From Eledone cirrhosa (lineage: Eukaryota), in NCBI GenBank assembly GCA_964016885.1, contig OZ024742.1, positions 281,666,001 to 281,730,000 of the forward strand: a DNA stretch of 64,000 bases, written 5' to 3'. Shown piece by piece: positions 729 through 60,335 of this stretch (positions within the stretch are counted from its first letter, which is position 1; each line of letters begins with the position of its first letter). The notes beneath the pieces are model-generated. The model saw nothing but the letters and a program-made list of their open reading frames with translations, had not been told where the DNA came from and did no database searches. A program made the position numbers and the translations under genes.

Positions 729-888
729 AAGTATGTACACGTACATACATATATGTATACAGACGTACAGTAGTATGTATATATATATATACATACATGC
801 ACACATATATATATGTACGTATGGATTCACCGAACATTTATTATAATGCTCGGTGTGTTTGTAAACAAACATCCCGTATTAAGCCGTA
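729..888 (-). repeat. Inverted partial copy of HHR repeat family A
   Basis: Reverse complement of about 1361-1525, embedded in (TA)n. Confidence 0.85.
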
Positions 889-986
889 TGTATATATATA
901 TATATATATATATGTATACATATATATGTATGTATACATACATATATATATATATATGTATGTATACATACATATATATATATACC

Positions 987-1039
<53 letters not shown>

Positions 1040-1041
<2 letters not shown>

Positions 1042-1583
1042 ATATATATACATACTACTGTACGTCTGTATACATATATGTATGTACGTATACATACTTA
1101 TATTTAAGTAACAGACGTACTAAGAGTGAGAAATGAAATTTCGTTTCATTTTTTCCGTTTATCCTTTTCAGTGCACCCGGCCGATTAACCCACTCGATAT
1201 GCAAATTGGGCTACTCAGCCGTTAATATGCATAAGATAAGTATATACGTTCAACAATCTGGCAGAAAGGTATACGTTGCTGACGATAGCTAATAAGCTTG
1301 AAACTAGTACAGCGTTCCTTTGTCAGTGTTGAACAAACGAGCAACGATGGTTGCTAGACACTACGGCTTAATACGGGATGTTTGTTTACAAACACACCAA
1401 GCATTATAATAAATGTTCGGTGAATCCATACGTACATATATATATGTGTGTGCATGTATGTATATATATATACATACTACTGTACGCATGTATACATATA
1501 TGTATGTACGTGTACATACTTATATTTAAGTAACAGCCGTACTAAGCGTGGGAAATGAAATTTCGTTTCATTTTTTCCGTTTA
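1040..1583 (+). mobile_element. HHR-containing tandem repeat family A (retrozyme-like), about 1.3 units of 422 bp
   Basis: catactactg recurs at 1051 and 1473. Contains an HHR. Ends aaatgaaatttcgtttcattttttccgttta followed by (TA)n. Confidence 0.8.
1273..1315 (+). ncRNA. Type I hammerhead ribozyme (family A)
   Basis: acgttg-CTGACGA-t.agc.taataa.gct.t-GAAA-ctag-TA-cagcgt. Stem I extends over about 1248-1332 (gttcaaca..ctggca.aaagg pairs with ccttt.gtcag.tgttgaac). Confidence 0.85.
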
Positions 1584-2229
1584 TATATATATATATATAT
1601 ATATATAATACAAATATATATATATATATACAAATGGAAGTTTAGTAAAATCTAAGTTTTTGGCTGTGGCCAAGCTATCGATAAACAATCAGGAATGTGC
1701 AGTAAAGCACACGAAAAGGTTGTGCCACTTAGAGTATTAACATACGTTAGAAAACTTGACAAATTGAAGACTGCGACCCGTTACCCAGCCACACGAACCA
1801 AAGCAACGAGAAAACCAACTCAGATATATAATATATAATATATATATATATGATTTTTAATGCGATGAAATACCAATGATCGTTGGCAAATCACTGATGA
1901 GGGACTCATTTTATAACATGCAATCCATGTGCAACCATGCAGTATTCTTCTCCCCATATTTTTCATATATATATATATATATATATATGCTATGTTGGCG
2001 TGTTTGACCTTTTGATTGAACCAAATATTTACATTGCGGCAGATCTTCGAGAAATCGCGAGAGTATTGCCAAGAGATATATTCTTGTTTTGAAAAGACTT
2101 ATAACCACGTTTCTCGAGAACTGCCGTGGAAGGTTCTGTAAGAGTAATGGAATAATGGATTGATGGGCAGCTTCTTGTAGTACTGATTAATCTATACGAA
2201 TGCCCGATTATTTGTTTTCGCATAAATGG

Positions 2230-7469: not shown

Positions 7470-7724
7470 AGGTAAATATACACGGGTGTGTATGATTGTG
7501 TATAGAAGATTATATTAATAAGAGGAATTCCAAATTTGTCTGATTTACTCGTTTTAATTACAATCCTTTAAAATATATAATGGTATTATATTGAAATAGT
7601 ATGATAGAATATTAAATTCTAAGTGTTAATTGAACAAGTACTTTCATGCTTTCGCAATCTTCAGGTTCATAATATGTGGTGATAGTCGAGTTTGCAATTT
7701 TCAACTGTAATGAGATGGGTAAAT
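7470..7724 (-). repeat. Inverted PLE1 pseudo-LTR at the 5' end of copy b, with HHR at 7631-7669
   Basis: Direct repeat of about 3431-3684 with the same HHR sequence. Confidence 0.9.
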
Positions 7725-8000
7725 GTCCTCCTATTGTGTATATGCCAACATGTCTGGAAAGCAACAAATGAAACCAACAGAATCAGAAAGAATTCTAAAG
7801 GAGATATCATCGAAATTATCAACACTTATCACGATGATGGACACACAATCCTCTATTTTAAAGGAAATAGAAAAACAATCTACAGACGGAAAACTTATAA
7901 CTGAACATATAAACTCTGAAATTAAGAATTTAGCTGAAATTATACCAACAGTTATCAAAGATACAAGAGAAAGCCTACCACAACCCCACAACCCCCTTGG

Positions 8001-9107
8001 ATGTCAGAAATAAACGAAAGAAATTTGGAAAACAAAACACATCGAATAAGAAAAGAAATGTGGAAGACATGGAAAAAATTCCTTAACATAAGAAAACAAA
8101 ATTTCTGGAAAGCATACAGATGCGAAAAATATGTCGAAACACATTCGAAATGGCTCTCTCTAACGGCACCCATACTCCCTCGTAAATACCTAATTACAGA
8201 AATTGCAGGAGAACCAGAAGAAGAAACAAAACTCCGATGGGAACTTACATTGACAAAATTCAGGACCGACATCTCCATTTCTGAATGTAAACAATCCCGC
8301 TACAAAGCTAAATATGAAGCTATTGATGACCAAATTGAAGTTGAAATTTCAAAGCTAACGACTGGTATTATAGCTGAAAAACTACGAGAACTATGGATCG
8401 GAGATATCTCAAAAGAAGAAAACAAATCAAGAAAGGTATGGCAGCAGAAACAATTATTTCTCGATGAATATGCTGCAAATTACGGTAAAGACTCTGGAAC
8501 CCTGAGAAAAAGCATTAAAAGTGGGCAATCTCATCAACACAACATACGCCAGAACACGTGCCAACACAAACACTCACCTTACCTTGAATCAAAGAAGAAC
8601 TACGGTAATAACTCTTCGCTTTTTCTACAAAAACACCCTATCGCACACAACATGAACAAAAAGCACAAACACGATAGATATTACTTTGACCAGACCATGA
8701 GAAGTAGTAAAACCAGGAGATCATTCTCAAGATCTCAACAGAAACTACCAACAAGGAATGTGAAAACAAAACGTAGAATAACCAGATCACTCTCAAGATC
8801 TCAACAGAGATTGCCCACAAGAAACTGGACGAAAAAACGATCTAAACCTGAAAGCAAACCTAGGTCATTTTCCCAGATTGTTAAAAATAATGCTAACAGG
8901 AAGAAAAATAATATACAGAATACCAAAAATAGGACAAAATACATAACGAAACCAAATATAATATCACGACCAAAAGTTCATCAAGCGAACACCAACAGGA
9001 ATATAAATCCTGAACAGAGAAAAATCCATTTTTTAACGTCAGGACAACAAAAACCGGAAAAAGAAAAACTCCAGGAGGAAACATACCCAAAACAGCTGTA
9101 CACGTAG
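8001..9107 (+). CDS. PLE1b ORF1 (368 aa; likely extended upstream by the overlapping ORF 7750-8013)
   Basis: Open ORF that overlaps the RT reading frame over 9014-9107. Confidence 0.7.
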   Translation: MSEINERNLENKTHRIRKEMWKTWKKFLNIRKQNFWKAYRCEKYVETHSKWLSLTAPILPRKYLITEIAGEPEEETKLRWELTLTKFRTDISISECKQSRYKAKYEAIDDQIEVEISKLTTGIIAEKLRELWIGDISKEENKSRKVWQQKQLFLDEYAANYGKDSGTLRKSIKSGQSHQHNIRQNTCQHKHSPYLESKKNYGNNSSLFLQKHPIAHNMNKKHKHDRYYFDQTMRSSKTRRSFSRSQQKLPTRNVKTKRRITRSLSRSQQRLPTRNWTKKRSKPESKPRSFSQIVKNNANRKKNNIQNTKNRTKYITKPNIISRPKVHQANTNRNINPEQRKIHFLTSGQQKPEKEKLQEETYPKQLYT

Positions 9108-11141
9108 ATCCTAAAATAATTAATTTATCTAAAAGAGATCTTGACAATGATGAAATGCAAATTCTGTCAAAAGGACTGAAATTCACACCGACTCCAACAG
9201 TCAACCACCAAGAACTGAAGGAGGATACCCAAGAATTCTGTCGAAAATTACGTCTTGTAGAATTCTTCGCTGATAAAAATAATGAGAGTGATGAATCACT
9301 AGTAAAGAATAAATCAAATTTCACTCCGCCAAAAGGAAGAAATATCTATCTCGACCAATACATTGACATTCTGTCTAAATTTCCTCTTAGACATAATACT
9401 AATGTTAGGCCAAACATTAACAAATCAGAAATGTCTGCACTTAAACGTATACAAAATGATAAAACAATAATAATTAAACAAGCAGATAAAGGAGGTGCAG
9501 TTGTTATAATGGATACTGAATACTACAAGGATTTGGTTGAGGAACAGCTGAAAGACACAACATTCTATCATGAAATACCGTCAAATATAGACCACAACAC
9601 CATGAAGAAGATCAACAACCTGGCTTCAAAATACCACAACTCATTTACTGATAAGGAAAGAGACTACATCACCAATTTTGAGCCGAAACCCAGCAACCTG
9701 TATGGCCTACCGAAAGTTCATAAGTCAAAAGAAATACAACTGGCAGTAAGAGAACAAAACAGTGAGTACATTAAATTATTACACCCAAAAGACTTAAAAC
9801 TTAGACCTATTATAGCTGGTCCAACATGCCCCACCCATTGTCTAAGCAATTTTGTTGACATTATTTTGAAATCACTATGTATTCACATACCCAGTTTCAT
9901 CCGGGATGATATCGACTTCCTGTCCCATCTTCACAAAACCACGGAAACGAATTCACTTCTACTCAGTTTTGATGTGGTAAGCCTTTACACCAACATTACA
10001 CATGATTTAGGAATAAAGGCGGTTAAATACTGGGTGGAAAAACATAGAGAAGTGATTCCCATTAGATTCACGGCGCCATTTATATTAGACGCAGTTAAAC
10101 TTATTCTGGAAAACAACACTTTCTTCTTCAATGGAAAGAATTACATCCAAATTAGAGGCACAGCGATGGGAACTAAGTTTGCTCCCGTTTACGCGAACTC
10201 TGTAATGGGATACTTAGAACAACAACTCTACCAAGAAATAGAGGAAAAATATAGTACTGACTTTAGAAAGTACATTGAAAAATCTTGGAAGAGATACCTT
10301 GACGACTGTTTCATCATCTGGACAGAATCTCTAGATACTCTGGATGAGTTCAATATCCTCCTGAATAACCTACACCCATCTCTCCAATTCACAAAAGAGA
10401 TGAGTACGACCAAATTACCATTCCTAGATATAATGATAATCAAAAACGACACCACCATTACCACGAATATATATTATAAACACACAGACACCCATCAATA
10501 TCTGAATTTTAAGTCGTGCCATCCACCTCATACAAAACGCAACATCCCATACTGCCTAGCCAGAAGAATTTGTACCATTGTAGAAGATACGAATACCAGG
10601 TACAAACGCCTAACAGAACTAAAAGAATTTTTGCTCAAACAAAAATACCCATCTCTATTTATAGAAAATGGCATACAGCGGGCTATAAAAATACCTATAC
10701 AACAACTTAGAACAACACAAGGAAGAAGAAACCAAGAACTGGTCATACCATTTATAATGACACACAACCCATGTCACCAGAATATCTTCAACACTGCCAA
10801 AGCAAACCTACCGATCATTGCTCAAAGTAATGAATTAAAAGGCTTAATCACAGATCGATCTTTGACTCTTAGTAAAAGACAGCCAAAAAATTTGAAGCAA
10901 TTACTAACAAAAGCAAAGTTTGACCTTAACAACAAAGACCAATCATTCACTGTATCTAAATGCAATGATAGTCGATGCGGCACATGTCAATCCATACACG
11001 CCGGTCAATATATGAAATCAAAAACTGTAAAAATATTCCCAAATGCAAATATGAACTGCAAAAGCAGAAATCTAATTTACTGCATTAAATGCCCGAATTG
11101 TGAAGAACTATATGTCGGTCAAACTGGAAATGCACTATCGG
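9014..11141 (+). CDS. PLE1b reverse transcriptase + partial GIY-YIG
   Basis: Frame is open from 9014 (first ATG at 9155). RT motifs DKG, DVVSLYT, GTAMG and YLDD are intact. The endonuclease is truncated at 11141. Confidence 0.9.
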
Positions 11142-11869
11142 AAAAAAGTGTATGTTGATAAGTATTGTGGCAATTTCAAAATTAACGAAGAGAAAAAAAT
11201 ATTAAGGTAGAAGGATTTGAGAAAAATAATGTGAAGTTAAAGTTTGTATATTGAAGGAATTGATAATATGTGCGAATAGAGAGTTAATATGTATTAAGAA
11301 TGAGTTCGTTGATGGGGAGAAAAAAATAATAAATTAAGGATGAAATTGAGATTAAAAAGTTTTAATTTATACATTAAAAAGTTTTAATTCATACATTATC
11401 TTCCAACGGTTCTCAACCTCTCTATGTAAAACAATATATCTTTTCTCAGTTATAAAAACTATCTCTTTCTCTCTATCACCCATCTCTCCCTCTCCACCTT
11501 CACTCTCATCTCCTCCCCCTTTTTTCATTCCTTCCCCCCCCCCTCCCTAAATAAAATATGTTTTCCTCGTACATATCTTCCCTTCGTTAATTTTCAAATT
11601 CTTTTAATTTATACATTATCTTCCAACGGTTTTCAACCTCTCTATGTAAAACAATATATCTTCTCTCAGTTATAAAAACTATCTCTTTCTCTCTATCACC
11701 CATCTCTCCCTCTCATCTCCTCCCCTTTTTCATCCTTTCCACCCCACCCCCCTCTCTAAATAAAATATTTTTCCCAATATCACACATCAATCTAAAACCA
11801 CTTTTCATATGTTGATTTAAAACTGTACTATCCACAAGTGTTTTTTAGCCTTCATATCATGTTCTCCTG

Positions 11870-11936
11870 TTTTATCTGATGAAAACACAAATATTATTGC
11901 ATGATGATGTTTGTTTTTGAAATGCGCATAATAAAA
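11870..11936 (+). ncRNA. Type I hammerhead ribozyme in PLE2 5' pLTR
   Basis: ttttat-CTGATGA-aaacacaaatattattgcatgatgatgtttgttttt-GAAA-tgcgca-TA-ataaaa, with a palindromic stem III. Confidence 0.85.
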
Positions 11937-12142
11937 TACATGGAACTCCTTTAACCATCTTTTGATCTTATATTATGTATACTCCAGTCCTACAAACTGT
12001 AGAGTGCTTCTTATCCGATATCTGCATTGCTTTATTGTACTACAATAAAACTCACCTCCTACATTAACTTGCTCCTTAACGGTTGAGCGCTTACTCTCCT
12101 ATTGGATACCTTTTGATGGTCTTTTACCTCTTCTTCTACAAC

Positions 12143-14544
12143 ATGGATTATTACAACATAACCAATTCAACTAAAGACATTCCTATACCTGGTAAATCTG
12201 AATTCACCAAACTTCTTATTGAAAAAACTGACTCCTTCGTAAGAAGACTTAGATGGACAGCCTATTTCTATGACCAGCGCCTAAAAGGGAACTTCCATAC
12301 CAAAGAATATAACTTCCTCGATCATCTATTTAATTCTAGACGAAATCCTCCTTCCAACAAAAATCTAGTACAATTCGAGGAAGAATTAACTAAAATAATA
12401 AAAAATCTTAAATTCAAGAGATACCCTTACAAAGGACAAGAGCACCTTGTAAATCTCAAGAACACAATTTCTAACCTAAATTCCTCAAAAAATGTTTTAG
12501 TCCACTCTGACAAAACCAATAACTTATATGGTATTTCCAAGGATAATTATAACAACCTTATCCTAAAGGAACTTAGGAAAAAGTATCGTAAAACCAACCA
12601 TGAAAATTTAGAATACATAAACCTTGAAGCCTCTGAGATTATGGCAAAACTTGGCATTGAAAAAAAGACCTAACCATTCCTCCCAAGAACTCCGAGGATA
12701 AATCTCAAGGATCACAAAAACAATTTTCGCACTGAACTACCTGTTAGATTAATCGCCCCCTCTAAATCTGATCTGGGGTTGTTAGTAAAGCCATCTTGGA
12801 TAGAATTATCCCACAGGTTAGTTCTAATTGCTCTTCTTTGAACCTAAATTTATGGTTTGGTACTTCTGAAGTGATTGGCTGGTTCAACAAATTGGATAAT
12901 AAAAACAAACTAAAATTTATTCAATTTGATATTGCCAGCTACTATTCCTCCATTTCGCCTTCACTTCTCAATAATGCTCTATCTTTCGCACTTAAATATT
13001 CTGACATCACCACAGATGAACTTCACATCATCCTCACCGCACGTAAAACCATCCTAGATTTCAACAACGAATATTGGACCAGAGCCGATACCTCTAACAA
13101 CTTCGACATCACAATGGGAGCATCCGATTCATCCCAATTGACTGATTTAATTGGTATCTTCATTTTGAACTCTTTGAGTCGGAAAATTCCTCAACTTCGC
13201 GGTGGAATTTATCGTGACGATGGACTCTTTACTATCCTAAATTGCAATATAGTTAACCTTAATATTATTAAGAACAATATACGTAATCTCTTTAACCAAC
13301 ATAACCTAAAAATTGAATTTGATAATAGTATCAAACTAGCTAATTTCTTGGATGTATCTCTTAATCTTGACACTGGCCTATATTACCCTTACCATAAAAA
13401 CAATGAGAACCTAAATTATGTTAACTTTAAATCTAACCATCCTACCAATATCAAGAATGCTATAGTTAGTAATATTGGAAAAAGAATATCTAACATATCT
13501 TCTAATAAAAACATCTTTGATGCTAACACCAATTACTATAATAACGCACTTTCTAAAGCCGGCTATCCAGATAAAATCAAATATAGTAAAGAAACAAATT
13601 CTAGAAAAACTTACAGTAGAATAATTAATCATGATCATTCCAATAATTTTAATAAAAGACCTAGATACAAAAACATAATCTGGTATAATGCTCCTTTCTC
13701 CATCTCTATTAATAACAATATTCCTAAATTATTTTTTAGTGCCTTAAATAAATGCTTCCCTCCCTCACATATCTATAGCAAAATATTTAACAAACACACC
13801 ATCAAATTTTCTTATTCTACATCCTCCAATATTTCCAACATCATCTCTAAACACAACAATAAAATACTAAATACTAAATCTCTTCCTTCCAACATTAAAT
13901 TTCATAATAACAGTAATAGTACTCCCGACGTCATTGTAAACCCTAGGCTAACTTCTGTAAACCCAAATACAACGTCAAACACAACTTCGCTAAATGTTCA
14001 TAATCCAACTCTAAATCAAGAAACTATTATTCCTATTATTCCTATCGCAAACAACTTCTCCAATCCAATTCCTTCTATAGATAACACTAGGTCACTCATT
14101 AATAATCTCTCTAATTGCAACTGCCGCATTAAAAATAAATGTCCTCTCAACAACCATTGTCTCGATAAAAACTTAATTTATGAATGTAAAGTTATAACTA
14201 GCACCAATTCCTTCACCTATTTTGGCTCCACTTCCACCTCTTTTAAAGCTCGTCTCTATAATCACCATTCATCTTTCAAATACAAACTTAAAAGAACCAA
14301 CACGGCTCTCTCAGAACTCATATGGTCCTTGAAAGACAAAAACATTAAATATACCATCTTTTGGAAGAAGGTTTCTTCTGCATCCTCATACTTGAACAGC
14401 TCTCTATCTAAAATCTGTAATCTCTGCCTAAATGAAAAATTTACCATTATCTCTAATCTAGATTCTATAATAAATAGACGTACAGATTTGTTTTCTATCT
14501 GCCTGCATAAATTCCATAGGACTTTTCACAAAGTATACAGTTAA
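12143..14544 (+). pseudogene. PLE2 RT + GIY-YIG, with an in-frame stop at 12671 and a frameshift near 12780
   Basis: SDKT, LKDHK..F...LPVRLIAPSKSDLG, FDIASYY, ITMG, YRDDG, CNC-x5-C-x5-C linker, IYECKV..YFGST, CNLC. Confidence 0.88.
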
Positions 14545-15575
14545 TATTCAATTCTTTATCAATTTAGAATCTTTTCTCAAAGGCACATATACATACACCT
14601 CTTTAAAATATACCCATCTTCCTACCCTACTTCAAAGGGCATTATACACTCTATAATACTTGTTTACTCATTACCCTTTTTCTATCTTCACCTTGTAAAA
14701 TCCTTCATAACATATACATTTGTTTTTTTGACGTTAGAATATTCATCCGCAATTATTATTATTTTTTCTCTCTATCTTAAAACTTTTTAATCTCAATTTC
14801 ATCCTTAATTTATTATTTTTTTCTCCCCATCAACGAACTCATTCTTAATACATATTAACTCTTTATTCGCACATATTATCAATTCCTTCAATATACAAAC
14901 TTTAACTTCACATTATTTTTCTCAAATCCTTCTACACACAAACCTTAATAATTTTTTCTCTTCGTTAATTTTGAAATTGCCACAATACTTATCAACATAC
15001 ACTTTTTTTGACGTTAGAATATTCATCCACAATTATTATTTTTTCTCTCTATCTTCATACATAAATTCCCTTCGTTAATTTTCAAATTCTTTTAATTTAT
15101 ACATTATCTTCCAACGGTTCTCAACCTCTCTATGTAAAACAATATATCTTTTCTTAGTTATAAAAACTATCTCTTTCTCTCTATCACCCATCTCTCCCTC
15201 TCCACCTTCACTCTCATCTCCTCCCCCTTTTTTATCCTTTCCCCCCCCCCTCCCTAAATAAAATATTTTTTCTTCGTACATATCTTCCCTTCGTTAATTT
15301 TCAAATTCTTTTAATTTATACATTATCTTCCAACTGTTTTCAACCTCTCTATGTAAAACAATATATCTTCTCCCAGTTATAAAAACTATCTCTTTCTCTC
15401 TATCACCCATCTCTCCCTCTCATCTCCTCCCCTTTTTCATCCTTTCCACCCCACCCCCTCTCTAAATAAAATATTTTTCCCAATATCACACATCAATCTA
15501 AAACCACTTTTCATATGTTGATTTAAAACTGCACTATCCACAAGTGTTTTTTAGCCTTCATATCATGTTCTCCTG

Positions 15576-15642
15576 TTTAATCTGATGAAAACACAAATAT
15601 TATTGCATGATGATGTTTGGTTTTGAAATGCGCATAATAAAA
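15576..15642 (+). ncRNA. Type I hammerhead ribozyme in PLE2 3' pLTR
   Basis: Second copy: CTGATGA at 15582, GAAA at 15625, then tgcgca-TA. Confidence 0.8.
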
Positions 15643-15842
15643 TACATGGAACTCCTTTAACCATCTTTTGATCTTATATTATGTATACTCCAGTCCTACA
15701 AACTGTAGAGTGCTTCTTATCCGATATCTGCATTGCTTTATTGTACTACAATAAAACTCATCTCCTACATATATATATATATATACATATATATAGTGAA
15801 GAAACATAAGTCAATTGCATGAATTCATAATCCTTTATTTTT

Positions 15843-15898
15843 ACTGCTATATATATTTCGATGATAGCCATTGAATGGCTATGACCTCATCAGGCAGT
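15843..15898 (-). ncRNA. Type I hammerhead ribozyme in a short orphan PLE-like 3' fragment (about 15797-16110)
   Basis: Minus strand: actgc-CTGATGA-ggtc.atagcca.ttcaa.tggctat.catc-GAAA-tatata-TA-gcagt, followed by AATAAA and (TA)n. Confidence 0.85.
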
Positions 15899-16253
15899 TA
15901 GTCAGTTCTTAGATATGCCAGATATGTTTATATGGGAAATATGAGCTTGTTAGGAATAATTTTATGTTGTCAGCAGGAATAATCTTAATTCTCATTGGTC
16001 AGATGCTAGTAGGGTTGGTATTTAACCTCAAAGAGGCAGGTGGTGTTGTAAAGTTCAAATCGTCAGGCAAGATGACAATAGTTCCATATGACTGATTTTC
16101 ACAAAAAGCATATATATATATATTTATATATATATATATAGTAGTGAAAGGGTGAAGAATAACATGCTCGGCTGTACAAAAAAGTTTTTATCTATAGTAT
16201 TAACAATTGTTTCATTAATCTAACTGGATTACCTAAAACGATAACTTGTTATC

Positions 16254-30899: not shown

Positions 30900-31860
30900 C
30901 CACCATTATTATAACCACTATCAACACCAACATCATCACAAACACCACCACTACTACCACCACTACCATCACCAATATCACCACCACCATCACCACTACC
31001 ATCACTAACATCAACACCACCACTACCAAAAAGAAATGCCACCACAATCACCACAAACACCACCACCATCACTAACATCAACATCACCACTACCAACAAA
31101 AATGCCACCACTACCACCACAAACACCACCACCACAACCACCATCACCACTACCATCACTAACATCCACACCACCACTACCAACAAAAATACCACCACTG
31201 CTACCACAAACACCACCACCACAACCACCATCACCACTACCATCACTAACATCAACAACACCACTACCAACAAAAATGCCACCACTGCTACCACAAACAC
31301 CACCACCACAAACACCACCACTACCATCACTAACAGCAACACCACCACTTCCAACAAAAATGCCACCACTACCACCACAAACACCACCACTACCACCACA
31401 AACACCACCACTACCATCACTAACATCAACACCACCACTTCCAACAAAAATGCCACCACTACCACCACAAACACCACCACCACAACCACCATCACCACTA
31501 CCATCACCACTACCATCACTAACATCCACACCACCACTTCCAACAAAAATGCCACCACTGCTACCACAAACACCACCACCACAAACACCATCACCACTAC
31601 CATCACTAACATCAACAACACCACTACCAACAAAAATACCACAACTGCTACCACAAACACCACCACCACAAACACCATCATCACTACCATCACTAACATC
31701 CACACCACCACTTCCAACAAAAATACCATCACTACCACCACAAACACCACCACCATCACCAACATCAACTCCACCACCACTACCAACAACCACCAATACC
31801 ATCACCAACTTCACCACCACCACCACCACCATCACCAACTTCAACGTCAACACTACCAAC
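30900..31860. repeat. ACC-rich minisatellite
   Basis: Recurring unit ccaacaaaaatgccaccact.c.accacaaacaccaccacc..ccatcactaacatc, about 80-110 bp. Confidence 0.9.
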
Positions 31861-32284: not shown

Positions 32285-32385
32285 ACGTGAAATAAAGTGT
32301 CTTGCTCAAGGACATAACGCATCGCCCGGCCCAGGAATCGAACTCACAACCTGAAGATTGTGAATCCAATTCTCTGACCACTCAC
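32285..32385 (-). mobile_element. tRNA-derived SINE head (family S2); related copies at about 30000-30230 (-) and 41900-42130 (+)
   Basis: Minus strand has box B gagttcgattcc, followed by gttatgtccttgagcaagacactt. Confidence 0.6.
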
Positions 32386-32583
32386 ATATATATATATATA
32401 TATATATATATGATTTTTTGTCTTTAATTTTCCGGTGTTTACTCCACCCCCCTCCCTACGTTTTTCTGTTTCTTTTTCCCTTCCCCGTCTCTGCCTATCT
32501 TCGCACTCACCCCTTCGTTCACTCCACCCCGCTTCACACCCCCGCCCTCTCATCCCTCCCCCTGCTTTCACCCAACGCCCATC

Positions 32584-35395
32584 ATGGCCAACCTGAGATC
32601 CTTTCTCCACCAACTCCACAATCGCCTCAAACTTGTCCTCACCCCCCACCTTCCACCCTGCTATCTCCCCTCCGCCCTTCAACTCTCCTACCTCTCTTCG
32701 CCAAAACCCGGCACTCCAGCCACATCCATTTCCTCAGCCACTGCCTCCGCCTCCACCTTATCCCCCTCGGCTTCCGTCTACACTTCCACCCCTCCCCCGC
32801 TGCTTCCCCCTCCACGCAACGTATCCTCACCCGATCCTCACGCCTTCTGATGCGCAACTCCATCCGCGCCTCCCGTTCCACCCTCCGCCTACTTGACCAC
32901 CAACTGACCCCCACCCTCCTCCGCCTTTACTCCACCTGCCACCCCCTCCTCGCCCAAGCCATTCTCTCCTTCATGCACAACCTCAACCACAACCTCTTCT
33001 CGTTCCTCAGCTCCACCAAAGCCCGCAAGCTACACTCACTCCTCCCAACCCCCCACATCCACCACCACCCGCCCATCCCCATACGCCCACCACTCTCCAC
33101 CTCTCCCCCGACCCACATCCCCACCCAATCTCCACCCTCCACCTCACCCTTCACCACACCCTCCCTTCCCTCCCCAAACCCCCAAACCCCACCCCTTGTT
33201 GTCACCATACCCCCTGACCTCCCCCTCTCCGCACCTGAGCGCTCACTCCTTAGTAGAGGCCTTCGCTTCATACCCCACACTCCGCTCAGCGACGAGTTCC
33301 GCACCCGAACGGAAGTCGAGCGATTCGTGCGACGCACTAAGCTACAGGCACATTTCAGCCGAACGCCACCGGCTCCGGACGCCCCAGACCCGTTTCTCGC
33401 CCTGGGCCGACGACCATCTTCTTGGACGCCGGCCCCAGGGCAATTTAGCACCCTGGACGCCTTCGTCGATGCCAGCCGTAGCGCAGTAAATCGTTTCGAC
33501 TTCCGCCACCGTTCCAAACGGCACAACATCTCACGGGGCGAACTCCTCGCTCTCCGCTCCCTCCGTAGCCGAGATGACATCGTCATCAAACCGGCGGACA
33601 AGGGAGGCGCCGTGGTGGTATGGCGCGCGGACCTCTACACGGCCGAAGCCCTCAGGCAGCTCTGTAACCCCCTCTTTTACCGCCCTCTACCCTCCGATCC
33701 CACCCCCCTCTACCAACAGCAAGTCTCCTCCACCATCAAAGACCTTATCGCCTCCTCCCTCCTCCCCCCCACCGCTTCCCATCTCATCGTCCGCACCCCC
33801 CGCACCCCTACCATCTACTTCCTCCCCAAACTCCCCAAACCCGACAACCCCGACCGCCCCATCGTCTCCGCTTGCAACTGCCCAACCGAACTCATCTCCG
33901 CCTTTCTCGACTCCCTCCTCGCCCCCTTGTCACCACCCTCCCCTCCCACATCTCTGACACAAACCACGCCCTGCGCTTTTTCGACTCCTTCACCTACCTA
34001 CCCGGCCCTCAGCCATTCCTCTTCACCCTAGACATCAAGTCCCTCTATACAGTCATACCCCACGCCGACGGCCTTCGCGCCCTCAAACACTACCTCGACC
34101 TTCGCCCCTCCCCCATTCCCTCCACCCCCACCCTCCTTCGCCTCGCGGAGCTGGTCCTCACCCTAAATTGTTTCTCCTTCTCGGGTGAGTTTTACCAACA
34201 GGTCACGGGGGTAGCCATGGGCACAAGAATGGGCCCGAACTATGCCAACCTTTTTGTTGGCCATGTTGAGGCCCAAATCTTTGCCCAGTACACCGGCCCC
34301 ACGCCCGAACTGTACGGTCGTTACATTGACGACTGTATCGGAGCCACGACCCTCACCCGAGTACAGCTCGACTCCTTTCTCTCCTGCTTCTGCTCCTTCC
34401 ACCCCTCCCTCCACTTCACCACCTCTATCTCCACCACCCACGTCCACTTCTTGGACATCTCCGTCGCCTTCGACCCCTCCCACCACTCCCTCGTCACCTC
34501 CGCCTTCTTCAAACCCACCGACTCCCACTCTTACCTCGACTTCACCTCTTCCCACCCCACCCACACTAAACTCTCCATTCCCTACTCCCAACTTCTCAAG
34601 ATCCGCCGCCTCTGTAGCCGAGATGCTGACTTCGAGTCCCAGGCCCTTTCCCTAGTCAGCCATTTCATCCGCAGAGGTTACCCCCCCCTCTCTCTCCACA
34701 CCGCTCTCACCCGCGCCCGTGCTATCCCCCGCTCCACCACCCTCACGCCACGCCACCGCACACCCACCCACCGTCTCCCCTTCCCCATCACCTACCACCC
34801 CTCCACCTTACCCCTCCACCGCACCATCCGCCGCCTCTTCCGACGCCTCCAGTCCGACCCCTGCACCTCCCACATCTTCCCAAACCCACCACTCCCCTCC
34901 TTCAAACGCGCACGCAATCTCCGCACCCTCCTCGTCCACAGCTCCCTACCCCCCAACCCACGCTCCGTTTCACCCCCCGGTTCCTTCCCCTGTTCTAGGC
35001 CCCGCTGCAACACCTGTCCCCACATCACCAACACCACCACCTTCCAGGGTCCCAACGGCCACCCTCTCTCGGTCCGGCATGCCTTCCGCTGCACCTCCTC
35101 CAACCTACTCTACGGACTTCGTTGCACGGAGTGCAGCGCGACTTAAGTCGGACAGACGGGACGTCGCCTGGCGGACCGAGTCACGGAGCACCTCCGGGAT
35201 ATTCGTCTCGGGGTCAGTTCCCCCATCGCTCGCCACTTTGGTGGCCCTGGACACTCCGCACGCCATCTCACAGTCTGTGGCCTACTCCAGTGCCACGGAA
35301 CACCCGTCCATCGCCTTACGGTCGAACAACGAACTATCTTCATCTTACAGACCCACACTCCCCCCGGCCTGAACTCCCCACCCTTATTCCTTTAG
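32584..35395 (+). pseudogene. PLE3 RT + GIY-YIG (frameshifts near 32695 and 33930; TAA at 35144 replacing the Tyr of YVG)
   Basis: HFLSHC..LIPLGF, SRGLRFIP, KPADKGGAVV, LDIKSLYT, GVAMG, RYIDD, CSRPRCNTC, YGLRCTEC..*VGQTGRRLADR..EH..RHF..PGLN. Confidence 0.9.
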
Positions 35396-36721
35396 CGTTC
35401 GACCGTCCCCCTCCCCCCACACTTATTCCCCACTAACACCACTAACACACCCCTCCTTTTCACCGCCCACCCCACACTAACAATACTAACACCTCCACTC
35501 CACCCCTCATCTGACCACCCTTCCCCAACTAACATACTAACATCCCTTCCCTCCCCTCTTCTCCTCGTCCCCCCTTCTTATCATACGCACACACGCACCC
35601 ACTTACACCACCCACCCCACACGCAACTAACATCACTAACACCCTCCAACCCCACGCACACGTACCCACATACCCTCGTACACCACCAACTCTACACACC
35701 CTATCCCCACTAACCCCCACTCACACCTGCATTCCACCCCTCCCCACCTCCCGTATACTAACACCCACTAACACCTCTTCACCAAACTACACACACACCA
35801 GCACACCACACTCCCTCCATAGAAACACACACACCCTTCTCTCCCCTCTCCACACTCACTCATCCCACTAACACCCCTACTAATACACACACACAAACAC
35901 ACACACACACACCCTCCTCACTCCAACTCTCACACCTACCCATCCTCGCCTCCCTACCATTCCGCCGACTGCTGCTATGCCCTTCCGACCACTGTCTCAG
36001 CACCAACTGACCACAGCACTCCCACTGCTGACCACTTCCTGTTGCGCGCGCACCCCACATCTCTCCTCTTCCGACCACCGCTTCTTGGATTACCCACACG
36101 CGATATTGACTTCTAACCAAAATCTCCAAACATCCGTGTAACTTACCAACTTTTCAACCATCCTCTTACACCATCACCTATATAACTCACCCACACACAC
36201 ACCCCAAAAATTTTTTTATCCACACGCCACCCACACCCACAACACGCGTAAACCACACACACGTGCTTCCCACCACATATTTACACTCTCAGCCTCCTGA
36301 TTCCTCTCCCCCCACCCCCCTATCCACACACGCACAGACCCTCCGACCCACAAAAACCCACCTCACACACACCTTCCTGAACATGCAACCCCGTTCTTCC
36401 CCAAACCCTCACTTTCACATACACACACACACACACACACACGCACACCTAACCACACACACCACCTTCAGCCCTCCCCGCTCGGACACCCCGTCTCTCT
36501 CTCCCCACTCCACCACCTGTTTACCACCCTTTTAATTTCAGTTTATTTTGATCATGCCTTTATTTTTAAATTTTCTCATTCCTTGTATTTTGATCATGCT
36601 TTATTTTTATTAATTATTTATTATATTTTTGTCTTTATTTGTTAATTTTTTGTTTCCATTCGCTATATGTCTCTCCACCACTCCCCTACACACCTTTTGA
36701 ACTCTGTTCCCACACACTTCT

Positions 36722-36754
36722 CACCTGAAGAAGAGCTTATGCCCGAAACGTCGT
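36722..36754 (+). ncRNA. Minimal hammerhead motif in PLE3 3' end
   Basis: CTGAAGA-agagcttatgccc-GAAA-cg-TC. Stem I is weak. Confidence 0.6.
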
Positions 36755-36855
36755 CCCCCACCTACCCCCCACTCTCCTGAGTGTGAATTTAATAAACATT
36801 TATCGTACTGCCTCTCTGTTCTGTCCCTGTTCAATTTTTCATTATATATATATAT

Positions 36856-37092
36856 ATATTTCGAACGTTCAACTATCTGGCAGATGGGTATACGGTGCTG
36901 GTGATAGCTAACAAGCTTGAAACTAGTACATCGTTCCTGTGTCAGTGTTGAACAAAAAGGTGACGTGGTTGCCTTAACACCGTATGGCATAAATTCACGT
37001 TTTTCAGTTTGTTTACAAACGAACAAAGCGGCGTTATAATAAGCGTCCGCTAAACTGATGCGTGCATATATGTATGTGTACCTATATGTATA

Positions 37093-37165
<73 letters not shown>

Positions 37166-37610
37166 GCATGCTACTGTACGTCTGTATACATATATGTATA
37201 TACGTATACATACATACTTACATTTAAGTAAGTGCCATACTAAGAGTGAGAAATGAAATTTCGTTTTCTGGGGGTTTTTTTAAAACTTATCGTTTTCGGT
37301 ATGCCTGACCGATTTAACTCACTCAACATGCAAATTAGGCTGCTCAGCCGTTAATTTTCATAAGGAAAGTATATACTTTCGAACGTTCAACTATCTGGCA
37401 GATGGGTATACGGTGCTGATGATAGCTAACAAGCTTGAAACTAGTACATCGTTCCTGTGTCAGTGTTGAACAAAAAGGTGTCGTGATTGCCTTAACACCG
37501 TATGGCATAAATTCAGACTGTTCAGTTTGTTTACAAACGAACAAAGCGGCGTTATAATAAGCGTCCTCTAAACTGATGCGTGCATATATGTATGTGTACC
37601 TGTATGTATA

Positions 37611-37698
<88 letters not shown>

Positions 37699-38281
37699 TG
37701 TATATGCATGCTACTGTACGTCTGTATACATATATGTATGTACGTATACATACATACTTACATTTAAGTAAGTGCCATACTAAGAGTGAGAAATGAAATT
37801 TCGTTTTCTTTTTTTTTTTTCAACTTATCGTTTTCGGTATGCCTGACCGATTTAACTCACTCAATATGCAAATTAGGCTGCTCAGCCGTTAATTTTCATA
37901 AGGAAAGTATATACTTTCGAACGTTCAACTATCTGGCAGATGGGTATACGGAGCTGATGATAGCTAACAAGCTTAAAACTAGTACATCGTTCCTGTGTCA
38001 GTGTTGAACAAAAAGGTGACGTGGTTGCCTTAACACCGTATGGCATAAATTCAGGCTGTTCAGTTTGTTTACAAACGAACAAAGCGGCGTTATAATAAGC
38101 GTCCGCTAAACTGATGCGTGCATATATGTATGTGTACCTGTATGTATATATATGTATATGCATGTTACTGTACGTCTGTATACATATATGTATGTACGTA
38201 TACATACATACTTACATTTAAGTAAGTGCAATACTAAGAGTGAGAAATGAAATTTCGTTTTCTGGGTTTTTTTTCAACTTA
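36856..38281 (+). mobile_element. HHR tandem repeat family A, about 2.8 units
   Basis: HHR cores at 36898 (CTGGTGA mutant), 37416 (intact) and 37954 (GAAA to AAAA mutant). Unit lengths 518/538 bp differ because of internal (TA)n. Confidence 0.85.
37410..37452 (+). ncRNA. Type I hammerhead ribozyme (family A)
   Basis: acggtg-CTGATGA-tagctaacaagctt-GAAA-ctag-TA-catcgt. Confidence 0.85.
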
Positions 38282-38293
38282 TATATATCTATA

Positions 38294-38912
<619 letters not shown>

Positions 38913-45804: not shown

Positions 45805-46536
45805 GCTGACGATAGCTAATAAGCTTGAAACTAGTACATCGTTCCTGTGTCAGTGTTGAACAAAAGGGCAATGATGGTCGCCGAACACTGTACGGCGTAA
45901 TTCGGGCTGTTTGTTTTCAAACAAACTGAAAATTATAATCAATGTTCGGTAAACCCATACGTACATATATGTATGTGTGCATGTATATATATACATGCCA
46001 CTGTGCGTATGTATACATATATGTATGTACGTATACATACTTGTATTTAGGTATCAGCCGTACTAAGAGTGAGAAATGAAATTTTGCTTCATTCTTTTCC
46101 ATTTATCGTTTTCGGTATGCCCGGCCGACTAACTCACTCGATATGCAAATTAGGCTGCTCAGCCGTTAATATGCATAAGGAAAGTATATACTTTCAGACG
46201 TTCAATCATCTGACAGAAAGGTATACAATGCTGACGATAGCTAATAAGCTTGAAACTAGTACATCGTTCCTGTGTCAGTGTTGAACAAAAGGGCGACGAT
46301 GTTTGCCGAACACTGTACGGCGTAATTCAGGCTGTTTGTTTACAAACAAACCGAACATTATAATAAATGTTCCGTAAACCCATACGTACATATATATATG
46401 TGTGTGCATGTATGTATATATATACATACTACTGTGCGTCTGTACATATATATGTATATACGTATACATACTTGTATTTAGGTATCAGCCGTACTAAGAG
46501 TGAGAAATTAAATTTCCTTTCATTCTTTTCCATTTA
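45805..46536 (+). mobile_element. HHR tandem repeat family A, about 1.7 units of 425 bp
   Basis: CTGACGA cores at 45806 (stem I truncated) and 46231. Ends tttcattcttttccattta followed by (TA)n. Confidence 0.85.
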
Positions 46537-46648
46537 TATATATATATATATAAACAAATAGTAGAAAGGAAAAAGATTTTTTCACTAGAAAATGCTTTCT
46601 ACTATTTGTTTTTATATATATCAACTCGTGTGTTACTTTTCTACATTG

Positions 46649-52906: not shown

Positions 52907-53795
52907 CTGACGTACCTAGCTTCGCTTGGATAAACAGACGATAAACCGTCTGTGTAGTATAGTATTACTGTTGAAAAAATATAGTATTACTGCTAAAAAT
53001 ATATAGTATAGTATAGTATTACTGTTGAAAATATACAGTATAGTATAGTATGACTGTTGAAAACATATAGTATAGTATTACTGTTGAAAACATATAGTAT
53101 AGTATAGTATTACTATTGAAAAGATATGGTATAATATTACTGTTGAAAACATATAGTATTACTGTTGAAAACATATTGTATAGTATTACTGTTCAAATTA
53201 TATAGTATAGTATAGTATTACTATTGAAAATATATAGTATAGTATTACTGTTGAAAATATATAGTATAATATTACTGTTGAAAACATATAGTACAGTATA
53301 ACTGTTGAAAATATATAGTATAGTATTACTGTTGAAATTATATAGTATAAAATTACTGTTGAAAATATATAGTATATTATAGTATTACTGTTGAAAATAT
53401 ATAGTATAATATTACTGTTGAAAATATATAGTACAGTATAACTGTTGAAAATATATAGTACAGTATAACTGTTGAAAATATATAGTATAGTATTACTGTT
53501 GAAAATATATAGTATAGTATCACTGTTGAAAATATATAGTATAGTATTACTGTTGAAAATATATAGTACAGTATCACTGTTGAAAATATATAGTATAGTA
53601 TCACTGTTGAAAATATATAGTATAGTATTACTGTTAAAAATCTATAGTATAGTATTATTGTTGAAAATATGTACACGAATATATAATTATATATATATAT
53701 ATAATTAATTAAAAGTTGGTTAGAAGCGAAGTCAATGCAGACAGGCAGACATACAGACATTATAAGCGCGCGACGTTATAGCTATGTATCTATCT
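52904..53795. repeat. 24-bp minisatellite (tatagtatagtattactgttgaaaa-type) inside a possible Helitron-like element
   Basis: About 28 units over 52955-53670. Preceded by tagctgacgtacctagcttcgcttgg, which resembles a Helitron terminal hairpin. Confidence 0.7.
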
Positions 53796-55087: not shown

Positions 55088-55172
<85 letters not shown>

Positions 55173-55387
55173 GTTAAAAATGTACATCCACATATGTATA
55201 CTGAAATACTAGTATGCATATGAATACACACACGTATACATATGTAGATGTACCAAGTTTTTCACTGGTCACTTTACTGTGAGTGTCCAGCTATTCTGTA
55301 TGTAAACACACAGACAAACCGGTTTTTAGAGTCATACTGGTTTTTGAGGAAACACCTTTCCTCTATTTTCCAGAAAGCCAGACAAGG

Positions 55388-55432
55388 AATATTGAACTAG
55401 TTTCGTTGTTGTTACAACTCATCAGCAATATT
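55388..55432 (-). ncRNA. Type I hammerhead ribozyme (family B)
   Basis: aatattg-CTGATGA-gttg.taacaa.caac-GAAA-ctag-TT-caatatt. Confidence 0.9.
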
Positions 55433-56239
55433 TACCTATCTTCCGGCCTTTCTGGAGAATCGTAAAAGCACATATCGTTATATGCTTTTTCTATGAAAAT
55501 TAGTAATGGGCAGACTAATTTGCATAGAGTGTGAGTACGTACCGGTTCAACGGAGACGATAAAAACAAATAACGAAACGAAATTAAATTTCGTTTCGTTT
55601 GTAACTCACATTTGTATGACTGACGCTTAAACAATTAAGTTAAAAATGTACATCCACATATGTATACTGAAATACTAGTATGCATATGAATACACACACG
55701 TATACATATGTAGATGTACCAAGTTTTTCACTGGTCACTTTACTGTGAGTGTCCAGCTATTCTGTATGTAAACACACAGACAAACCGGTTTTTAGAGTCA
55801 TACTGGTTTTTGAGGAAACACCTTTCCTCTATTCTCCAGAAAGCCAGACAAGGAATATTGAACTAGTTTCGTTGTTGTAAAAACCGGTTTGTCTGTGTGT
55901 TTACATACAGAATAGCTGGACACTCACAGTAAAGTGACCAGTGAAAAACTTGGTACATCTACATATGTATACGTGTGTGTATTCATATGCATACTAGTAT
56001 TTCAGTATACATATGTGGATGTACATTTTTAACTTAATTGTTTAAGCGTCTGTCATACAAAAGTGAGTTACAAACGAAACGAAATTAAATTTCGTTTCGT
56101 TATTTGTTTTTATCGTCTCCGTTGAACCGGTACGTACTCACACTCTATGCAAATTAGTCTGCCCACTACTAATTTTCATAGTAAAAGCATATAACGATAT
56201 GTGCTTTTACGATTCTCCAGAAAGGCCGGAAGATAGGTA

Positions 56240-56284
56240 AATATTGCTGATGAGTTGTAACAACAACGAAACTAGTTCAATATT
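56240..56284 (+). ncRNA. Type I hammerhead ribozyme (family B)
   Basis: Same motif. Stem I is extended by ttctccagaaag.gcc..agatagg pairing with ccttgtct.ggc.tttctggagaa. Confidence 0.9.
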
Positions 56285-56705
56285 CCTTGTCTGGCTTTCT
56301 GGAGAATAGAGGAAAGGTGTTTCCTCAAAAACCAGTATGACTCTAAAAACCGGTTTGTCTGTGTGTTTACATACAGAATAGCTGGACACTCACAGTAAAG
56401 TGACCAGTGAAAAACTTGGTACATCTACATATGTATACGTGTGTGTATTCATATGCATACTAGTATTTCAGTATACATATGTGGATGTACATTTTTAACT
56501 TAATTGTTTAAGCGTCAGTCATACAAAAGTGAGTTACAAACGAAACGAAATTTAATTTCGTTTCGTCATTTGTTTTTATCGTCTCCGTTCAACCGGTACG
56601 TACTCACACTCTATGCAAATTAGTCTGCCCACTACTAATTTTCATAGAAAAAGCATATAACGATATGTGCTTTTACGATTCTCCAGAAAGGCCGGAAGAT
56701 AGGTA

Positions 56706-56750
56706 AATATTGCTGATGAGTTGTAACAACAACGAAACTAGTTCAATATT
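56706..56750 (+). ncRNA. Type I hammerhead ribozyme (family B)
   Basis: Identical motif one unit downstream. Confidence 0.9.
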
Positions 56751-57115
56751 CCTTGTCTGGCTTTCTGGAGAATAGAGGAAAGGTGTTTCCTCAAAAACCA
56801 GTATGACTCTAAAAACCGGTTTGTCTGTGTGTTTACATACAGAATAGCTGGACACTCACAGTAAAGTGACCAGTGAAAAACTTGGTACATCTACATATGT
56901 ATACGTGTGTGTATTCATATGCATACTAGTATTTCAGTATATATATGTGGATGTACATTTTTAACTTAATTGTTTAAGCGTCAGTCATACAAAAGTGAGT
57001 TACAAACGAAACGAAATTTAATTTCGTTTCGTTATTTGTTTTTATATATATATATATATATATAATAAAATATATTTTGATTACGTTGAATGTCTATATT
57101 TATTAATACTTTGAA

Positions 57116-57218: not shown

Positions 57219-57290
57219 TATATTTTATTATATATATTTCGGAGGTATTCTGGTGTTTTTTTTCAGTACGTCCTCATCAGATAAAATATA
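57219..57290 (-). ncRNA. Type I hammerhead ribozyme in an orphan PLE-like 3' fragment
   Basis: tatattttat-CTGATGA-gga.c.gta.ctg..cag.aa.tac.c.tcc-GAAA-tatata-TA-ataaaatata, with a 10-bp stem I. Confidence 0.88.
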
Positions 57291-58206: not shown

Positions 58207-59977
58207 TGCATGTATGTGTATACAGTATATATATTTTGCTTTGCTTTATTTTCGAGCGTTTAGAAAGCCGTTGCACTGAACTTGCCAAACGAAGACGAAA
58301 TAATGAACATATCCTGTTTGACCTAAAATACCAACATGTATGTTAAAATATCAGCTCGGTTTGAGATAACAATTATGTTATATGAATGCATAGGGAATAA
58401 TGATGGTTTTGCATCATGGTAATTTAATTAAATTTGATTTCGTTTTGTATAAGGACAGATCACAATAACTAATGTAATCTTAAATCATACCTGTATCCCC
58501 TCCCTCAGGAAATACGTTTGATCATAGGTATACTGTGATCAGTTTTTATCTATAAATATACGACTACATCGCAAGCAACAGCAAGAATATCAAGCTTATC
58601 AATAATAAAAATGACAATATTTATCTTCAACATCAGTTCGTGAACTATATGAAAACTGCAACTCAAATTCCATGTAGGTGAATGCACATTATGCTTATTA
58701 GACTCGCTTTTTCTGTAAAGTTCTGATTTTGTTTGATGTAAGTAGCGTTTGACTATTAACCCCCCATTGTAAAGTACTTATTTTCTAATAAACGACCAAT
58801 TAGCTGTGAAACATGAAAAGTGATCTCTGAAGTTTTTTTGTTTTTTTTAATTCTCTTTACGAAAATAATAACAAAGTTTTTCTCTTTCACGATTTCTAAG
58901 GGAAGTTCATAAACTATACACGTAGTTGCACCTATATTTATCTTGGATGTTCTAATATACACTCTTTGTTATTTTAATGAAGATTAGAATGATAAATGTA
59001 ATAAACCAGCTATGTGTGTGTGAACGTGTGTGTGTGCATGTGTGTTTATGCGTGTATTTTTAATAGCTATAATAGTATTCTTATGATGTAATTGCTTCGG
59101 TTTCAACACACATTATCCGAGATCAATTCACTTGCAACATAATCACAACTCTACAAGAAGTGCAATTTTAATATGCTATTATATTGCAAAGGAAATTATG
59201 GAAGGGTCACGGCTGGAACACGTTTATTCAAATGCTCGCTCGATCAGAGTTGAACAGGTCTTAAACAACAACAGTAACAGCAGCGCCAACAGTGGCGTCG
59301 AAAGCCATTGCAAAAGCCATAACAATCACAGTGTCAGATGGGAAGGTTAAAATTGTAAACAACTGCAAATTTGATTAAATATACAAGTACCCTCCGATAT
59401 TAATCAACAACAACAGCAACAATAACATTACCACTACTACCAAAACTACACCACCAGTTTCACTACTACCATCATCAACACGCCTATTACCATTGCCGCC
59501 AACAAAAATAGGAACACCGTCACATTTTCATTACCAACACCAACACCAACACCAAAAGAAAGCACCATCACATCTTCTCGAAGACCACCACATCCAACAG
59601 AGACATCAACTACCATCAACAATATCACCAATCCCACCATCATTACGAAGAGCACCACCACTAGTAGGGTCATCGTCATATATTCACTCCGGTTACAATA
59701 TCCATCACACTTTCACAACCACCATTATGGCATCCATTGCTTTGTCACCACGAACATCAACACAATCAAACCCACCAACAAGAGCGGCACCGCTATATAT
59801 TTCATCAACGTCCACATCATTGCCACAGCTTCAACCAATAATACCAACAACATCACATACGATGCCAACTTCTCAATCTCACCTCTATACTCCGAACAAT
59901 AGCTTACCAACATTATCACCACCATAGCTTGCCAGCCACCAACATCTCAATCAGCTAAGCTTACCAACTACTAACGT

Positions 59978-60335
59978 CACTACCATGAACATCACAGACA
60001 ATGCTAAACTCTCATTCCCATTACTAAACCAACTACAGCCTCACCACCACTATAGCTTAGCAAGCTCCACCCCTCTTGCCGTAGCTTACCACTCACAAAC
60101 ACTTAACTGACCAACCGCCAACATAGTCACTACCATGAACATCACAGACAATGCTAAACTCTCATTCCCATTACTAAACCAACTACAGCCTCACCACCAC
60201 TATAGCTTAGCAAGCTCCATCCCTCTTGCCGTAGCTTACCACTCACAAACACTTAACTGACCAACCGCCAACATAGTCACCACCATGAGCAAGACATACA
60301 GTATTAAACTCTCATTCCCGTTACTAAACCAACAT
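59978..60335. repeat. 150-bp tandem duplication (about 2.3 copies)
   Basis: taccatgaacatcacagac at 59981 and 60131; diverged partial third copy at 60281. Confidence 0.9.

Follow-up and report, generated by a model that had tools for sequence, protein, structure and literature searches.

The repeat array at 36856 in the window, by which we mean the whole 64,000-nucleotide stretch of Eledone cirrhosa DNA analysed here, belongs to a hammerhead-bearing, non-coding tandem repeat (family A) that was likely copied into (TA)n by the reverse transcriptase-endonuclease of a Penelope-like element (PLE), probably from a circular RNA. We assign a probability of roughly 0.7 to this reading as a whole. That family A is a PLE-mobilised retrozyme, with or without a circle, can be held with high confidence. 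The family is real, abundant and recently active and, judged by its sequence, conforms to the definition of an animal non-LTR retrozyme. Elements of this kind are already known; what is new is the insertion footprint. In the literature we found no retrozymes described in cephalopods and, in the portions of the retrozyme and PLE papers available to us, no PLE-type insertion ends described for retrozymes; the supplements of PMC7229834 and PMC11167929 may bear on novelty.

Results

Family A in the window

The genome to which the window belongs measures 3.0 Gb and is assembled in 1,796 contigs; (TA)n and PLEs abound in the window. Motifs resembling reverse transcriptase (RT) occur in four of its frames, two of which have a Pfam RT match under the curated cut-off. 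Family A had initially been annotated as one unit occurring at three loci, and the unit is indeed present at all of them. The array at 36856 is a 1.42-kb stretch of about 2.7 units, flanked on both sides by (TA)n tracts, and its unit shares 75-83% identity with the loci at 729-1584 and 45805-46537. A further family, B (55.2-57.0 kb), shows about 60-66% identity to family A. The relevant features are given below, sites 1 and 2 being the two positions at which most insertion arms end.

36860..38282, plus strand: family A, subfamily A36 (L001), tandem insertion with one arm of about 2.7 units and a truncated 5' end; its 3' end is at site 2, …CAACTTAT followed by (TA)n
36892..36934, plus strand: hammerhead of unit 1, with core A6 changed to G (36898)
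37384..37472, plus strand: predicted extended stem I hairpin of about 25 pairs with internal loops, framing the hammerhead of the middle unit
37410..37452, plus strand: intact type I hammerhead motif of the middle unit, predicted cleavage after 37446; stem I 37410-15/37447-52, core 37416-22, stem II 37423-36, GAAA 37437-40
37603..37705, plus strand: variable (TA)n, tip of a long AU-rich hairpin, long in subfamily A36 only
37766..37828, plus strand: "tail" of about 60 nt within unit 2, from site 1 (after …CTTACAT) to site 2 (after …AACTTAT), the latter about 156 nt ahead of the next predicted cleavage site
37948..37990, plus strand: hammerhead of unit 3, with core G12 changed to A and a stem I A·A mismatch (37954)
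729..889, minus strand: subfamily A1, short inverted arm of about 0.4 unit (L061), ending at site 1 in (TA)n
922..1584, plus strand: subfamily A1, plus arm of about 1.4 units (L061), ending at site 2; the 5' limit (922) is approximate as it lies within a TA-rich stretch
1279, plus strand: core of the A1 plus-arm hammerhead, the sole one of that locus, predicted cut after 1309
45805..46537, plus strand: subfamily A45, single arm of about 1.7 units (L091), ending at site 2; the first hammerhead is without the 5' stem I strand, in the second (core 46231), stem I contains an A·C mismatch
55168..57045, both strands: sister family B, head-to-head insertion with a 466-nt unit and the same predicted fold as A; the minus arm runs to site 1, the plus arm to site 2; hammerheads at 55425 (minus), 56247 (plus) and 56713 (plus)

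The letters previously read as conserved, i.e. the core CUGA(C/U)GA, stem II AGCU/AGCU and GAAA-CUAG-UA, are all present, and stem I does read ACGUUG/CAGCGU at 1273 and ACGGUG/CAUCGU at 37410. The middle hammerhead alone is intact in the three-unit array, as had been noted, unit 1 having lost A6, and unit 3 both G12 and a stem I pair. Other descriptions need correction. The locus at 729-1584, taken for a tandem array, is a minus arm head to head with a plus arm and holds a single hammerhead. At 45805, where the motif was said to be kept, the unit is there but neither hammerhead has a full stem I. An internal, expanding (TA)n had been ascribed to the units in general; it is a trait of the 36856-type subfamily, whose longest TA run spans 12-98 nt with a median of 36 nt (55 monomers), while the runs of the other two subfamilies are short (8-20 nt, 23 monomers).

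Around the array, three PLE-type insertions are stacked in one (TA)n (window 36700-38820). One is the end of a C-rich PLE (frames 32364-35146), with a hammerhead-like motif lying near 36725; another is the family A array itself, and the last is an inverted stub that belongs to a third family. Unrelated minisatellites lie at 30900-31840 (87-bp period), 52955-53670 (27-bp) and 59976-60333 (150-bp). Rfam matches to miRNAs were discarded as (TA/CA)n artefacts far under the gathering scores.

Family size, subfamilies and age

The 32-nt hammerhead core has 23,644 exact matches in the genome, compared to 0 for the reversed control, and a looser family A pattern gives 25,274; cores with another letter at the stem II base give 11,331 matches, which are mostly family B among 100 listed. 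Of these matches, which exceed 25,000, about 250 loci were examined; they had been retrieved either by similarity or with hammerhead patterns, a choice that favours young copies and hammerhead-containing arms. With TA runs collapsed, the unit is 412-452 nt long and has a GC content of 0.37-0.39. The 91 full monomers of the first 120 loci fall into three clusters of 63, 20 and 8, with a divergence of 2.8-4.6% within and 9-19% between clusters. A fourth subfamily of A carries C·A or C-G at the stem II base and a GUU site; it accounts for a CUGAUGA-C variant that we had considered, and rejected, as the repeat of a partner PLE. A suspected inter-subfamily junction at the cleavage site was rejected as well, its 24 discordant copies being more simply an intermediate subfamily.

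For each window locus, a separate set of 96-98% identical relatives exists elsewhere in the genome (40 candidates scored per search), and some arrays hold identical units. The family is thus not an older one, as the initial annotation had supposed; the divergence among the three window loci reflects different subfamilies and not age. Its description as retrozyme-like and repeatedly mobilised is borne out. Family B, in turn, has a 466-469-nt unit with a canonical G-C at the stem II base. It comprises three or more subfamilies, among which one pair of stem II is compensated, and forms very young arrays of up to about 30 units.

The hammerhead and its probable mode of cleavage

With a CUGANGA…GAAA…UH core and stems I-III in type I order, the motif is a type I hammerhead, and all core letters are present in 173 of 189 copies. 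Family A scores 18.6 bits and family B 37.7 bits against Rfam HH9, where the gathering score is 52, so that neither is HH9 as curated. In the intact motif, stem III consists of one pair closed on the palindrome ACUAGU, and the stem II base (10.1-11.1) is a U·U. The GGUA bulge region and the loop II letters, candidates for a tertiary contact between loops I and II, are invariant in 10 aligned family A/B copies. Axolotl retrozymes, as far as described in the part of PMC7229834 available to us, include one whose stem III is a single pair on a palindromic tetraloop (Amex1) and one with a U·U stem II base (Amex2), and cleave poorly as monomers and well as dimers (section 15). The two weaknesses, split there over Amex1 and Amex2, are united in one ribozyme here. 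Moreover, the fold of the single motif predicts a competing pairing that blocks the core. Given these resemblances to the axolotl ribozymes and the competing fold, the family A hammerhead would likely cleave as a dimer. A cleavage assay of the single motif (37385-37470), as had been suggested, could hence mislead by a negative outcome, since a hammerhead of this type likely needs a dimer.

A 7-8-nt deletion that affects the stem II hairpin recurs at many dispersed family A copies; possibly, it arises by slippage of the reverse transcriptase across the short hairpin.

Structure and selection

When folded as circles, all A subfamilies and family B share the same branched plan (z of -6.5 to -13.7, 25 shuffles each), with 66-70% of the monomer predicted to pair with itself. 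In directed comparisons, in which one subfamily's fold was combined with another's substitutions, pairs hit by a change could still pair, more often than under random placement, in 20 of 20 cases (p at most 0.021), the 20 not being mutually independent, and double changes are in excess in 13 of the 20. Within the hammerhead helices, 92% of positions are paired over 22 pairs, compared to 35-46% for slid partners (10 copies, 7 subfamilies); 9 of the 22 pairs are changed on both sides, mostly as single A-versus-B events and thus few independent ones. Families that are otherwise 40% apart do not differ in the core.

The stem I pair for which a swapped wobble had been noted is G·U in 81, U·G in 63 and A-U in 39 of 199 copies, with 4 further standard pairs and 12 unpaired copies, 7 of which come from one array. 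The pair is accordingly kept as standard or wobble in 187 of 199 copies, as the earlier observation implied, and its state (G·U, U·G or A-U) is a subfamily trait.

After landing, the picture differs. Private mutations amount to 14 in 1,982 site-copies in the core and 168 in 14,839 in the flanks, i.e. 0.71% versus 1.13% per site (p=0.10), in a test of 189 of 224 copies from which those fetched by the exact core were omitted; a protection of the core in landed copies is therefore not significant. Of the selection for the hammerhead fold postulated initially, the part concerning differences between subfamilies and the whole unit stands, but such selection is undetectable in inserted copies. Pair-keeping change between subfamilies, taken together with the lack of significant core protection after landing, shows that selection acts on the propagating RNAs, landed copies not being measurably protected.

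An octamer, ATGCAAAT (window 37866-37895 and homologous places), is the same in the majority sequences of the five A/B subfamilies, while the stretch predicted to pair with it is not, a hint that its letters as such have a role. A newt satellite is reportedly a precedent for reading such an octamer as part of an snRNA-type promoter. This candidate was rejected, as three U2 genes of the genome are without the octamer within 600 nt upstream and gave no convincing match to the unit. Over 40 U2 snRNA genes of the genome stand in tandem at G000:C3:307349000-307454000, spaced about 2.2 kb apart.

The insertion footprint

To locate the ends of insertions, 304 anchors were traced downstream; 162 enter the next unit, 139 stop and 3 were unaligned. 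Of the 139 stopping 3' ends, 118 share two break-off points, sites 1 and 2, which are separated by 59-63 nt; what follows there is nearly always (TA)n. Site 2 is about 150 nt upstream of the next predicted cleavage site, and all three family A loci of the window end there. A wider set including family B has 185 of 236 3' ends at the two sites.

The two sites are divided between the arms of inverted insertions. Among 76 head-to-head insertions, 39 have one arm per site and 2 have both at the same site, while 26 have an end at another position and 9 an end out of view, so that site 1 is combined with site 2 in 39 of 41 classifiable cases (p=4e-10 versus independent choice). Under these strict limits, 25 of the 76 have one end at neither site and one has both; under looser limits, 67 head-to-head insertions comprise 47 mixed, 4 same and 16 other (47 of 51 mixed). 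The 5' ends, in contrast to the 3' ends, are scattered and show no enrichment at the predicted cleavage site. They coincide with the predicted cleavage site in 6 of 242 cases and, for paired arms, in 5 of 152 versus 4.5 expected, and 156 of 206 complete arms extend back over at least one predicted cleavage site. A target-site duplication is unreadable within the (TA)n flanks.

Tandem and inverted arms, 5' truncation, a one-end tail and an AT-rich target are features of PLE-type insertion, all of which are present in family A. A coding PLE of the window and the stub directly behind the array served as comparators for the end signature.

11820..15771, plus strand: coding PLE, end-signature comparator; terminal repeat with a hammerhead at 11876, frame 12080-14544 with a broken RT plus GIY-YIG-type domain, then a second repeat and a tail ending in (TA)n
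38394..38819, both strands: inverted head-to-head stub of the coding-PLE terminal repeat, in (TA)n directly behind the array, its two arms ending one at each of that PLE's two sites

Like family A, the coding PLE terminates in (TA)n at a fixed site, and its opposite arm ends at a site 1 located 82-88 nt earlier in 22 of 22 insertions showing one. These comprise the stub at 38.4-38.8 kb and 21 of the 29 loci retrieved, with the first arm chosen to contain site 2. According to the available parts of PMC11167929, an anole PLE uses two internal RT start sites in vitro, which produce the tail, and cuts and extends both strands of an AT-rich target; one-sided tails and inverted, 5'-truncated copies are known PLE traits (PMC8557442, in part). 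Several other PLE families that target (TA)n, their hammerheads having a long stem II and a TA-palindromic stem III, occur at L341-L349 and at 15870-15910 and 57230-57290; in each of them, two end sites seem to be present, separated by about 80-95 nt.

These ends bear on the possibility that the family is an old satellite spread by unequal crossing-over or duplication, its inversions being assembly fold-backs or recombination products. One 36-unit array does have higher-order repeats, which are typical of local amplification. Dispersed copies, however, end at two fixed internal sites in (TA)n and have unrelated flanks, and the two arms of an insertion differ in end site and start at unrelated positions, whereas fold-backs would be mirror images. 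A satellite origin appears extremely improbable, and for dispersed copies these ends already contradict it.

Coding capacity and the search for a partner

A frame search over the units returned microsatellite-type frames only, with no RT or GIY-YIG inside or joined to them, and no LTR organisation was apparent. One might thus ask if the units are the 5'-truncated terminal repeats (pLTRs) of an unseen coding PLE instead of an independent element. Inverted stubs with a one-sided tail are ordinary in PLEs (PMC8557442, in part), frog retrozymes are close to PLE pLTRs according to the portion of bioRxiv 10.64898/2026.07.22.740005 available to us, and the loci examined are a small sample of the hammerhead matches. 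Against this, arms exceeding one unit continue into another unit, and 101 single 5' flanks have no common upstream sequence other than inverted family pieces and one unrelated pair. Furthermore, PLE protein matches were found at only 2 of the first 30 loci, downstream of and apart from the units. We consider it very unlikely that the units are such stubs.

No partner PLE was found by comparing the window PLE proteins with the fetched loci, among other hammerheads with the same stem III (including 18 low-copy loci), or in 9 extended loci, relatives of the PLE at 11820-15771. Local alignment of four window PLE ends to the units gave best p values of 0.04-0.065, none of which survives 16 tests. 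A 12-nt motif just past site 1 of the PLE (15650-15720) resembles the same position in families A and B (p=0.065) and may offer a weak lead to the clade of the partner.

The PLE at 11820-15771 itself has no Pfam match, PDB and NCBIfam gave nothing useful, and its match to the PLE near 4 kb is a weak one in the RT region (23%, E 2e-6). A head-to-head PLE pair at 3420-11160 comprises an upstream 389-aa frame and an RT frame of more than 700 aa; its hammerhead also has a U·U stem II base and a palindromic stem III.

A probable single template per insertion

Units of the same insertion resemble each other. In a 120-nt segment, the mean number of differences is 2.4 within an insertion versus 4.3 between insertions, and units are closer within in 84 of 92 insertions, a comparison that left out two arrays of more than 25 units and one mixed locus; in the other 8, units match one another no better than they match those of other insertions. 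For the window array the contrast is slight, its three units giving 4.0 versus 4.5 differences over these 120 nt. In 46 of 50 two-armed insertions the opposite arms agree, and rare variants are common to both arms in 19 of the 50. One family B insertion has 13 identical units across both arms, one family A insertion has an equal TA length in both, and one family A array alternates two unit types in the order ABAB. Alternation is seen at L205 (G000:C1:19315000-19317200), where the two unit types have 14 differing sites. They meet in two kinds of junction, and in one kind stem I is weakened, which would be expected if a two-unit circle had formed by skipping that hammerhead. At L210, the 3'-most partial unit differs from two identical upstream units, which a one-unit circle does not predict; no identical parent was found among 40 scored of 1,636 candidates, the best outside match being 97%.

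Judged from these sequences, the homogeneity of units within an insertion fits repeated reading of a circle. An uncut multimeric transcript would yield the same end pattern. On this alternative reading, family A would still be a PLE-mobilised parasite, but an existing array would be transcribed into a linear multimer that serves uncut as the template, the hammerhead being used at another step (processing or stability) or being a mere passenger. In the available parts of PMC11167929, the anole PLE inserts unprocessed RNA in vitro, and hammerhead mutants insert normally. Slow cleavage is moreover predicted from the weak stem III, the U·U stem II base and the competing fold, of 9 dimers of frog retrozymes just one cleaved in vitro (bioRxiv 10.64898/2026.07.22.740005, in part), and the last unit of L210 is unlike its neighbours. 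Yet arms in which 6-11 units are identical or nearly so, on both strands and with variants specific to the insertion, would need a homogeneous source array of the same length, while most loci have 1-3 units; the hammerhead core is unchanged between the two diverged families, and the simplest account of the ABAB array is that a two-unit circle was read through twice. A linear multimer is, on balance, an unlikely template, and a circular RNA the probable one.

Discussion

Proposed course of an insertion

We propose that neighbouring hammerheads in transcribed arrays would pair via their palindromic stem III and cut after GUA, thereby releasing monomers of 410-540 nt which may circularise. The propagating RNAs, as the sequence comparisons show, are selected for one branched predicted fold through pair-keeping changes. 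A PLE protein would then nick both strands of a (TA)n target, and priming on the RNA would take place at two internal sites about 60 nt apart, presumably aided by a UAU/CAU microhomology of 2-4 nt. Arms do end at the two sites, one per arm in head-to-head insertions. Each reverse transcriptase would circle the template a variable number of times and halt at an unrelated position, and the two cDNAs would be joined 5' end to 5' end. Later local expansion is seen at a few loci, in long arrays with higher-order repeats. We suggest more tentatively, at somewhat below even odds, that a dimeric PLE protein on one circular RNA primes each (TA)n strand at a different fixed site, both RT units rolling around it.

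Relation to known elements

As far as described in the portions of PMC7229834 and bioRxiv 10.64898/2026.07.22.740005 available to us, animal non-LTR retrozymes are likewise short, low-GC (37-39% here), non-coding, structured tandem units with a type I hammerhead per unit, present in tens of thousands of copies and co-occurring with PLEs. Family A differs in that its ends are fixed, paired and PLE-like with (TA)n as target, while the main texts on retrozymes mention no inverted insertions, tail or target site. In the same sources, the enzyme that moves retrozymes and the use of a circle as template are posed as open questions, and the link between PLEs and retrozymes consists so far of co-occurrence and terminal-repeat similarity.

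Endonuclease-positive PLEs (PMC8557442, PMC11167929, each in part) share with family A the tandem and inverted insertions, 5' truncation, microsatellite targets, a one-end tail, two internal RT start sites and a hammerhead in the repeat. Unlike these PLEs, family A is without a protein and forms pure unit arrays of up to 36 copies. Its tail is about 60 nt long (about 70 nt in family B) compared to 30-40 nt in PLEs, and its sites follow the cleavage site at a distance of 206-296 nt, with the TA run collapsed, compared to about 85-90 nt. The MRC1-type non-autonomous elements of Chlamys, in the part of PMC8557442 available to us, are likewise non-coding, multicopy head-to-tail, PLE-dependent and bounded by pLTR-like ends. 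They resemble their partners at the 3' end, whereas no partner similarity was found for family A, and Chlamys elements are reportedly for the most part without a canonical hammerhead, which is the best conserved part here.

Implications

Family A bears the mechanical footprint of PLE insertion in large numbers, with two priming sites named to the base and a conserved fold common to two families that are 40% apart. It is therewith a ready substrate for an in vitro PLE assay, and circle versus multimer is testable from the genome alone. If a dimeric PLE protein does act on one circle, the one-sided tail of PLEs would be explained by two start sites strictly divided between the two strands, and the insertions described here would testify directly, from the genome, to the movement of animal retrozymes as circles via PLE machinery.
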